This document shows, piece after piece, positions 21,001 through 24,000 of a stretch of 29,115 nt of DNA. The DNA comes from a virus (taxonomy: Duplodnaviria; Heunggongvirae; Uroviricota; Caudoviricetes): the IMG/VR virus record IMGVR_UViG_2531839661_000005; one strand, 5' to 3'. The position numbers were made by a program. Each line of letters starts with the position of its first letter. The first letter of the stretch is position 1.

Positions 21001-24000
21001 GGAGCAGACACCGCCGGAAGGCTTTGAGTCCTCCGGGGCGGAAACCGCACTGGGCGTGGAGGTGACGAAGGCAAAGCCGGTGACGCGCACCATCACGTCA
21101 GCGAACATTGACCGTCTGCGGGTCACCTTCGGGGTGCAGTCACTGGTGGAGACCACCTCAAAGGGTGACCGTAATCCCTCTTCTGTCCGGCTGCTGATTC
21201 AGCTTGAGCGTAACGGTAACTGGGTGACGGAGAAGGATGTCACCATTAACGGCAAGACCACCTCGCAGTACCTGACGTCGGTGATTCTGAATAATCTCCC
21301 TGAGCGCCCCTTTAACATCCGGATGGTCAGGGTGACGGCGGACAGCACCACGGACCAGCTGCAGAACAGAACGCTGTGGTCGTCATACACCGAAATCATC
21401 GATGTGAAACAGTGCTACCCGAACACGGCCATTGTGGGGCTGCAGGTGGATGCGGAGCAGTTCGGTGGCCAGCAGATGGTGGTGAACTACCATATCCGCG
21501 GCCGCATCATTCAGGTGCCGTCAAACTATGACCCGGAAAAACGCACCTACAGCGGTATCTGGGACGGGAGTCTGAAACCGGCATACAGCAATAACCCGGC
21601 CTGGTGCCTGTGGGACATGCTGACCCACCCGCGCTACGGGATGGGAAAACGCCTGGGGGCCGCGGATGTGGACAAGTGGGCGCTGTATGCCATTGGGCAG
21701 TACTGCGACCAGACGGTCCCGGATGGTTTCGGGGGCACAGAGCCGCGGATGACTTTCAATGCGTACCTGTCACAGCAGCGTAAGGTCTGGGATGTCCTGG
21801 GGGATTTCTGCTCGGCGATGCGCTGTATGCCGGTATGGAACGGCCAGACGCTGACGTTCGTTCAGGACCGTCCGTCGGATGTGGTGTGGCCGTACACCAA
21901 CAGCGATGTGGTGGTGGATGATAACGGCGTGGGGTTCCGCTACAGCTTCAGTGCCCTGAAGGACCGGCACACGGCGGTGGAGGTGAATTACACAGACCCG
22001 CAGAACGGCTGGCAGACTTCCACGGAACTGGTGGAAGACCCGGACGCCATCCTGCGCTACGGGCGCAATCTGCTGAAGGTGGATGCGTTCGGCTGTACCA
22101 GCCGCGGTCAGGCCCACCGTGCCGGACTGTGGGTGATAAAGACCGAACTGCTGGAAACGCAGACGGTGGATTTCACGCTCGGGTCTCAGGGGCTGCGGCA
22201 CACACCCGGTGACATCATTGAAATCTGTGATAACGACTATGCCGGGACCCTGACCGGCGGACGCATCCTGTCCATTGATGCCGCCAGCCGTACCTCGACG
22301 CTGGACCGTGAGGTGACACTGCCGGAAGCAGGGACATCGACGGTGAACCTGATTAACGGCAGCGGTAAGCCGGTGCGCGTGGACATCACTGCACACCCGC
22401 CCTGACCGGATACTGGTCAGCGTCCTGCCGGATGGCATGGAGACATACGGTGTGTGGGGACTCTCCCTGCCGTCACTGCGTCGTCGCCTGTTCCGCTGTG
22501 TTTCCATCCGGGAAAACACGGACGGCACCTTTGCCATCACGGCGGTGCAGCATGTGCCGGAAAAAGAAGCCATTGTGGATAACGGGGCCCGCTTTGAGCC
22601 GATGTCCGGCTCACTGAACAGCGTCATCCCGCCGGCAGTGCAGCACCTCACGGTGGAGGTGAGTGCCTCAGACGGCCAGTATCTGGCGCTGGCGAAATGG
22701 GACACGCCGCGGGTGGTGAAGGGCGTGCGCTTCAGTCTGCGCCTGACCAGTGGCAGTGGTGAAAACAGCCGCCTGGTGACCAGCGCCATCACTGCCGACA
22801 CGGAGCACCGTTTCAGAGGCCTGCCGCTCGGGGAATACACCCTGACGGTCAGGGCGATAAACAGCTACGGCCAGCAGGGCGAACCTGCCACCACCACATT
22901 CCGGATTAATGCACCGGCGGCACCGGCCAGTATTGAACTGACGCCGGGCTATTTTCAGATAACGGTGGTCCCGCATCCTGCGGTGTATGACCCGACGGTA
23001 CAGCATGAATTCTGGTTCTCAGAAAAACGCATCACGGACACGGCACAGGTGGAAACCTCAGCCCGTTATCTGGGTACCGGCAGCCAGTGGAGCGTCTCCG
23101 GCCCGCACATTAAGCCCGGGAAGGATTTCTGGTTTTATGTGCGCAGCGTCAACCTGGTGGGGAAATCTGCGTTTGTGGAGGCCAGCGGGCAGGCCAGCAA
23201 TGATGGTGAAGGGTATCTGGAAATTTTCCGTGGGCTGATAGATGAGGCGCTGCTGGGGAAGGCACTGAAAGAGCGTATTGATGCGTCAGCCCTGCGTACT
23301 GAGGTCACGCAACTGGAAGAAGACATCCGCCAGCGACTGGAGACGGATGTTGCGGAAGTGACCCGAAAAATCGGGGAGGCGGAAAACAGCCTCACGCAGC
23401 TGGTTGCGAAAAAGAATGAGGACCAGACGCTGGCCATCGCGCAGGTGAGTCAGCAGGTGGACCGGGTGAGCAGTGAAATCACACAGACAGTCAGCCAGAG
23501 CACGGAGGAAAACGCCCGGCAGATAGCGCAGGTCCGCCAGTACGTGGATGACAAAGGGAGTGAAATCACCTCGACCACGGATAAAAAGCTGGAAGACCAG
23601 AGCGCGACCATACAGCAGATACAGCAGGTCCAGTCAGACACGAATGATGAGCTGGCAGCGCTGTACATGCTGAAGGTGCAGAAAACGAAAAACGGCATTC
23701 CGTATGTTGCCGGTATTGGTGCGGGGATTGAGGATGCTGATGGCCAGACGCTGAGCAATATTCTGCTGCAGGCGGACCGTATCGCGATGATTACCCCGGA
23801 GAACGGCAACACCACGCCGCTGTTTGTGGCACAGGGGAATCAGCTGTTCATGAACGACGTGTTCCTGAAGCGACTGTTTGCGGTGAGTATCACGTCATCC
23901 GGCAATCCCCCGACGTTTTCCCTGACGCCGGAGGGCAGGCTGACGGCCCGCAATGCTGACATCAGCGGACATATCAGTGCGAACTCGGGCACGCTCAATA

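Follow-up and report, generated by a model that had tools for sequence, protein, structure and literature searches.

Gene J of a lambdoid prophage is broken into two reading frames in the window analysed here, a stretch of 29,115 nt, where two neighbouring C4 runs are each one C short. Judging from the pattern of sequence changes, we consider it probable, at roughly 65%, that the break reflects local base-calling or consensus errors and that J is one continuous 1,228-codon gene in the living strain. We favour this reading because the window carries two short patches of unique, mostly indel, all damaging changes in otherwise intact sequence. A preliminary description of this DNA had offered genuine inactivation of the tail tip gene and a sequencing or assembly indel as alternatives. 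The two separate losses, the cluster of private differences around them and a second such cluster in the neighbouring side-tail-fibre gene (stf) favour the indel, and genuine inactivation is favoured less.

Gene J in two frames

The two pieces of J (Table 1) lie in different codon phases, the N-terminal piece, whose ORF is open from 20732 with a likely start at GTG 20783, in phase 2 and the continuation in phase 0. Possible restarts for the C-terminal piece are ATG 22437 and GTG 22452, the latter preceded by GGAG at 9 nt; a product counted from ATG 22437 matched no record, the deposited protein beginning at GTG 22452. The N-terminal piece contains the Pfam domains FNIII-A_GpJ and Phage-tail_3, and the C-terminal piece contains Ig_J, Ig_J_second, Phage_Tail_Tip and Ig_GpJ_C; jointly these make up all six domains of lambda gpJ in the lambda order, each with E <= 2.5e-24. 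Putting back the two C yields a 1,228-aa product whose alignment with solved lambda gpJ (8iyk_J; E = 0, 1714 bits) extends from one end to the other, residues 1-836 matching 1-838 and residues 937-1227 matching 838-1131. By these alignments, the resemblance to lambda gpJ is homology and not chance.

The gene also sits where gpJ/TipJ belongs: within the tail module it follows H, M, L, K and I and precedes the side tail fibre. It thus shares with lambda gpJ (PDB 8iyk, 8iyl, 8k35) the domain order, the place after H-M-L-K-I and, once repaired, the end-to-end alignment, but differs in being two ORFs and in having an insertion of ~100 residues at about lambda 838/839. As deposited, it lacks the single uninterrupted frame of about 1,130-1,230 codons. 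The two ORFs and the gpJ domain order bear out the earlier claim of a split J with both halves collinear with lambda J, and the stop codon that had been placed at 22403-22405 is indeed a TGA.

Table 1. Features of the window discussed in the text, in window coordinates
Feature	Position	Strand	Remarks
Right-hand ~7.4 kb of helper-embedded PICI-type satellite	1-7434	+	inserted in the prophage terminase large-subunit gene
Terminase large subunit, C-terminal part resuming	7435-8559	+	right junction about 7421-7435
Intact tail genes upstream of J	13972-20543	+	each full length and in one frame against RM10466
V	13972-14721	+	intact against RM10466
G	14738-15160	+	intact against RM10466
T part	15211-15495	+	intact against RM10466
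H	15539-18187	+	intact against RM10466
M	18184-18513	+	intact against RM10466
L	18513-19211	+	intact against RM10466
K	19222-19965	+	intact against RM10466
I	19962-20543	+	intact against RM10466
J, N-terminal piece, 540 codons	20783-22405	+	GTG start; premature stop TGA 22403-22405; deposited as EII58648.1, 'hypothetical protein EC33884_3698'
J private patch, 122 nt	22293-22414	+	CT to TC 22295-22296 (Leu to Ser), two C losses, A to T 22414 (Gln to Leu)
J, C-terminal continuation, +1 frame	22353-24467	+	open from 22353; deposited from 22452 as EII58881.1 (671 aa)
J lesion CCCGCCC	22396-22402	+	CCCCGCCCC in intact relatives; from alignments and enumeration of deletions
CCC_TGA_C, stop context made by the lesion	22400-22406	+	known +1 frameshift-prone heptamer
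Side tail fibre (stf-like), N-terminal piece	24951-25625	+	Pfam phage_tail_N, Collagen; out-of-frame tail at end
stf private patch, 72 nt, collagen-like repeats	25576-25647	+	+A (A5 to A6, 25576); G to T with -A and +A (25612-25616); +G (G4 to G5, 25647)
Side tail fibre, C-terminal piece	25715-26611	+	as deposited; frame open from 25622; Pfam Collagen, Gp53-like_C

The nearest J relatives are 98-99% identical in DNA over the whole gene. They include the intact J of STEC lambdoid prophages (WP_099528358.1 of O178:H19 strain 2012C-4431, WP_000514886.1 of RM10466, and phage 1720a-02), which have the same 3,687-nt gene between the same hok/gef and stf neighbours; theirs reads CCCCGCCCC without interruption, whereas the window is short of two C. 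Comparison with the J genes of related prophages had been named beforehand as a check, together with the prediction that two extra bases would restore one J ORF. The relatives prove to be uninterrupted and 2 nt longer, and every intact relative carries the two bases (4203 versus 4201 nt).

At the lesion itself, the window reads CACACCCGCCCTGACC. The relatives that are closest in this region, namely phage 1720a-02, SCU-106 and the second RM10466 prophage, read CACACCCCGCCCCTGACC; further close relatives, 2012C-4431 among them, have G where CACACCCCGCCCCTGACC has T. One C is missing from each C4 run, leaving CCC at 22396-22398 and at 22400-22402 with G22399 between them, and this two-base loss shifts the frame such that the TGA within ...CCC-TGA-CC... 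becomes in-frame. We enumerated all contiguous 2-nt deletions and none yields the window allele, which rules out a single 2-nt deletion and means that two separate 1-nt losses, 4 nt apart, are needed.

Two further origins of the lesion were considered and set aside. The frame change had been attributed to a short CA repeat, but the relatives carry an identical CACA and the lost bases are the C's of two runs, so slippage at that repeat is ruled out. The range given for the change, 22392-22397, overlaps the first C run, while the second, at 22400-22402, lies outside it. A hairpin causing gel compression has no specific support either, as shuffled controls form stems as good as the 6-bp one beside the site (z = -1.3 and -0.5); with so ordinary a hairpin (z = -1.3), a sequencing error of that particular kind gains nothing.

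Private differences in J and stf

We call a difference private when the window base is supported by no relative, and we compared 50 loci, five or more relatives being available over 12.8 kb. Five private events fall within the 122 nt of the J patch and five within the 72 nt of the stf patch (net +2), which lies 3.2 kb downstream. Outside both patches, the rest of the 12.8 kb holds four private substitutions and zero private indels. Under a uniform rate, the Poisson probability is about 3e-7 for the J patch and about 2e-8 for the stf patch, or 3e-5 and 4e-6, respectively, after correction for the number of windows. Inside the patches, indels outnumber substitutions seven to three, and every private substitution alters the protein (Leu to Ser, Gln to Leu and, in the collagen-like Gly-X-Y region, Gly to Cys). 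Such an indel-rich, all protein-changing pattern is the opposite of natural variation in J and stf.

In stf, the frames run 3 to 1 to 2, J on the same numbering passing from frame 2 to frame 3 after 22405, and part of the stf patch is scrambled inside the Gly-X-Y repeats, GGGACCAAAA having become GTGCCAAAAA. Apart from the patch, the gene is 99.7% identical to that of strain 2012C-4431, and its truncated product is a singleton found on a single contig only. Split side-tail-fibre genes have a precedent in laboratory lambda PaPa, in which, as Hendrix and Duda reportedly described in 1992, stf is divided by a frameshift into orf401 and orf314. The likeness is that of an stf-like gene beside J split by a frameshift; the lambda case, however, is one verified base loss, and the window stf has several private changes in 72 nt.

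The broken J allele is equally solitary. Its 540-aa N-terminal product is on record on one contig only, AFAC02000004.1 of the Escherichia coli 3.3884 draft (GCA_000215285.2), and EII58881.1 forms a one-member cluster. The window agrees with this contig without difference over the comparable 18,333 nt; contig coordinates equal window coordinates + 370, which puts the J lesion at about 22766-22772 of the contig. A 141-nt probe over the lesion was compared with 5,426 complete E. coli genomes and hits 5,804 places in 1,731 of them; none has the deletion allele, and the best match (97.9%) falls short by the two gaps and a single mismatch. Even the best matches among 2,584 and among 5,804 J places in complete genomes depart from the window at precisely the private positions. 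Exact-pattern scans of IMG/VR, GTDB species representatives and JGI metagenomes give no match to the deletion allele, and the same scan finds the intact allele in 31 viral contigs in IMG/VR. A mosaic junction, or a patch imported from a diverged or decayed paralogue, was also tried and rejected, as no J copy in the 5,426 genomes has the patch. Literature searches on the accession and on the strain name found nothing.

The remainder of the prophage is sound. Of the 31 reference genes of RM10466, 29 have full-length, single-frame counterparts in the window, and J and stf alone change frame; the 4.7 kb chromosomal flank on the right side has zero indels relative to four independent genomes. With 29 genes intact, we reject general prophage decay, and the proposal of a decaying prophage is poorly supported. 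Relative to RM10466, the window has T insertions at 12274 and 24899, both intergenic and judged to be ordinary variation, and a T deletion at about 1150 that is probably natural variation too. The deletion follows a G9 run (1140-1150) where a small hypothetical gene ends, and relatives diverge from one another in that stretch.

Under the error reading, a short low-quality stretch of the draft would have been miscalled, with one C dropped from each of the two adjacent C4 runs, CT swapped to TC about 100 nt upstream and A turned to T 12 nt downstream. The two dropped bases would bring the TGA of ...CCCC-TGA-CC... into frame and thereby give J its apparent split, and a second low-quality stretch 3.2 kb downstream would break the side-tail-fibre gene likewise. 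The cause would presumably lie in base calling or in the making of the consensus, for instance if coverage was thin, or down to a single read, at points where prophage tail genes present in several copies needed bridging. J occupies a median of 3 and up to 14 places per genome, and since J and stf are multi-copy in such strains, they would be the least secure regions of draft assemblies. Several observations count against an error. A new real mutation would be a singleton as well, the runs, at 3-6 bases, are shorter than the long homopolymers at which platform errors classically occur, and gross quality is good, the assembly being a second version whose contigs are long and whose flank is clean.

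The main rival, that the strain genuinely carries CCCGCCC and a broken stf after recent inactivation, we regard as possible though doubtful. It would leave the prophage and its embedded satellite without an adsorbing tail tip, save for a leak by +1 slippage at CCC_UGA_C. In its favour, the frameshift stands in the public record and is the same in window and contig, two neighbouring adsorption genes are affected, and prophage tail genes are often annotated as frameshifted elsewhere (J and I in SCU-106, stf in 2014C-3307). Yet it requires about ten private events, mostly indels, in two patches of at most 122 nt, with none in 29 genes and the flank, and none of these changes occurs in any related genome. 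Relaxed selection would spread changes over the prophage instead of clustering them, and a patch pattern of this kind is not expected from replication errors or relaxed selection; it is what base calling or consensus making of locally low quality yields.

The premature stop and possible ways around it

The stop context made by the lesion lends genuine inactivation some further support. According to PMC10861913, which cites Gurvich et al. 2003, CCC_TGA is one of two classic frameshift-prone sequences of E. coli, with >1% +1 shifting; in the same paper, +1 slippage at CCC_AGG rescues a frameshift mutant of rpoB. The lesion in J makes a CCC_UGA_C at the very point where a +1 slip would restore the frame. 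The J site differs from the known ones in arising in one assembly only and in being known here from sequence. Skipping T22403 would give a 1,227-aa J with no internal stop, one residue off the repaired 1,228-aa protein (HPAP becoming HPP). The arrangement at 22400-22406 also shares with a prfB-type site a slippery P-site codon, a poorly terminated stop and a +1 frame that continues the protein.

These features suggest a scenario in which CCCGCCC is real and an accidental shift site, about 1% or more of ribosomes making full-length J minus one residue, so that helper and satellite would be attenuated and not dead. The solved tail-tip entries have three gpJ chains each, and with so few chains per entry a leaky J might still allow some tails. 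We consider this combination improbable.

A functional two-piece J appears still less plausible. Here, the C-terminal 671-676 residues would be translated separately from GTG 22452 or ATG 22437, a plausible restart 32-47 nt past the stop, and would assemble with the N-terminal 540. The break at about residue 540, however, aligns inside well-conserved lambda gpJ; it lies between Phage-tail_3, which ends at residue 495, and Ig_J, which starts near 598, with no recognised domain boundary. Moreover, no natural split is seen there in the 23,296-member cluster, in which the shorter members among those listed are labelled 'partial'.

We give next to no credence to programmed +1 frameshifting, in which a slip at CCC_UGA_C would be the normal route to J. 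Synthesis of release factor 2 involves a +1 shift at CUU_UGA_C, and the J site resembles such a signal in having a slippery Pro codon followed by UGA-C, with the 0 and +1 frames joining seamlessly. Against this, there is no Shine-Dalgarno-like stimulator upstream, neither GGAGG nor an AGGGGG-like element occurring at 22380-22399 (TGGACATCACTGCACACCCG), and J is a structural protein, in three copies per tail, without a known need for such control. The CCC_UGA_C shift arrangement is found in no other sequence among thousands of homologues (complete genomes, viral, GTDB and metagenome scans), all of which encode J in one frame; this non-conservation effectively refutes the idea. A phase-variable switch, in which the lengths of short homopolymer runs turn J and stf off and on, is dismissed with similar firmness: all frame-changing events are indeed length changes of C, A or G runs, but the runs are only 3-6 nt long, the J lesion needs two runs altered together, and every other genome has the in-frame run length at the J and stf sites.

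The embedded satellite and the meaning of the lesion

The window opens within a satellite inserted in the terminase gene, the contig beginning 370 nt before the window and still inside the element. In relatives, the complete element is roughly 10.3 kb (993-11335 in locus L007 and likewise in L008), and its genes to the left of the window encode an integrase, an HTH protein and a BRO-N protein. The part in the window holds small and Icd-like genes, a DUF4222 gene, a D5-type primase and a second ClpP-protease/major-capsid fusion. The paralogous fusions at 4635-6524 (satellite) and 10260-12239 (helper prophage) share about 51% protein identity. Imperfect 15-nt direct repeats (TTTTTGGATGGAGGG) are found at both satellite junctions by comparison with the intact gene of phage 1720a-02, and precise excision between them would therefore rebuild the terminase gene.

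The satellite capsid gene is flanked by two 114-nt copies, at 4005-4118 and 6543-6656, that are about 86% alike. They are 89-94% like a segment of phage 1720a-02 (L051, 832-998) that lies immediately upstream of the gene before the large terminase gene; in the relative O22:H8 154, this preceding gene is a DUF1441 gene. This segment contains GGGGCGGGCGGCGCGG, which is reminiscent of lambda cosN. Given these similarities, the 114-nt copies may be the 'doubled DNA motif' of HE-PICIs, or cos sites for packaging hijack. Helper-embedded PICIs have lambda gene A among their main targets (PMC10111431), and the element in the window resembles them in being an integrase/primase/capsid element in helper late gene A with end repeats and copies of a helper cos-like segment. 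In this case they describe the genomic setting and provide no cause for the J lesion: the satellite does not explain the lesion because relatives with the same element have intact J. The suggestion of a helper disabled while its tail shaft genes are kept is unsupported for that reason, and embedded satellites of this type likewise require helper tails.

Two other features of the prophage may be recorded. A hok/gef-family toxin gene of 46 codons (24666-24806) lies between J and the side tail fibre, in the place occupied by lom in lambda, and is kept in all close relatives. The prophage is inserted in ydfJ, which we take to be the site of the Qin prophage of K-12; 27832-29115 is the ydfJ remnant of 427 codons, the window ending at its stop codon, and the homologous ydfJ gene in RM10466 is marked by RefSeq as lacking its N-terminus.

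The finding is ordinary on either main reading: as an artefact the split is a matter of curation, and as a real lesion it makes J a routine prophage pseudogene. In the former case, EII58648.1 and EII58881.1, and likewise the two stf pieces, should be merged or flagged as frameshifted, and prophage-completeness calls for the strain should not score J as lost. More instructive biology in the window is the satellite in the helper terminase gene, a class already described (PMC10111431). If the allele were real, it would be a further example of the recent inactivation of a prophage tail gene, which is a familiar sort of event, with the modest twist that the CCC_UGA_C slippery stop made by the lesion might leave J leaky. 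A leaky J would then offer a natural example of ribosomal slippage rescuing a frameshift in a structural gene.
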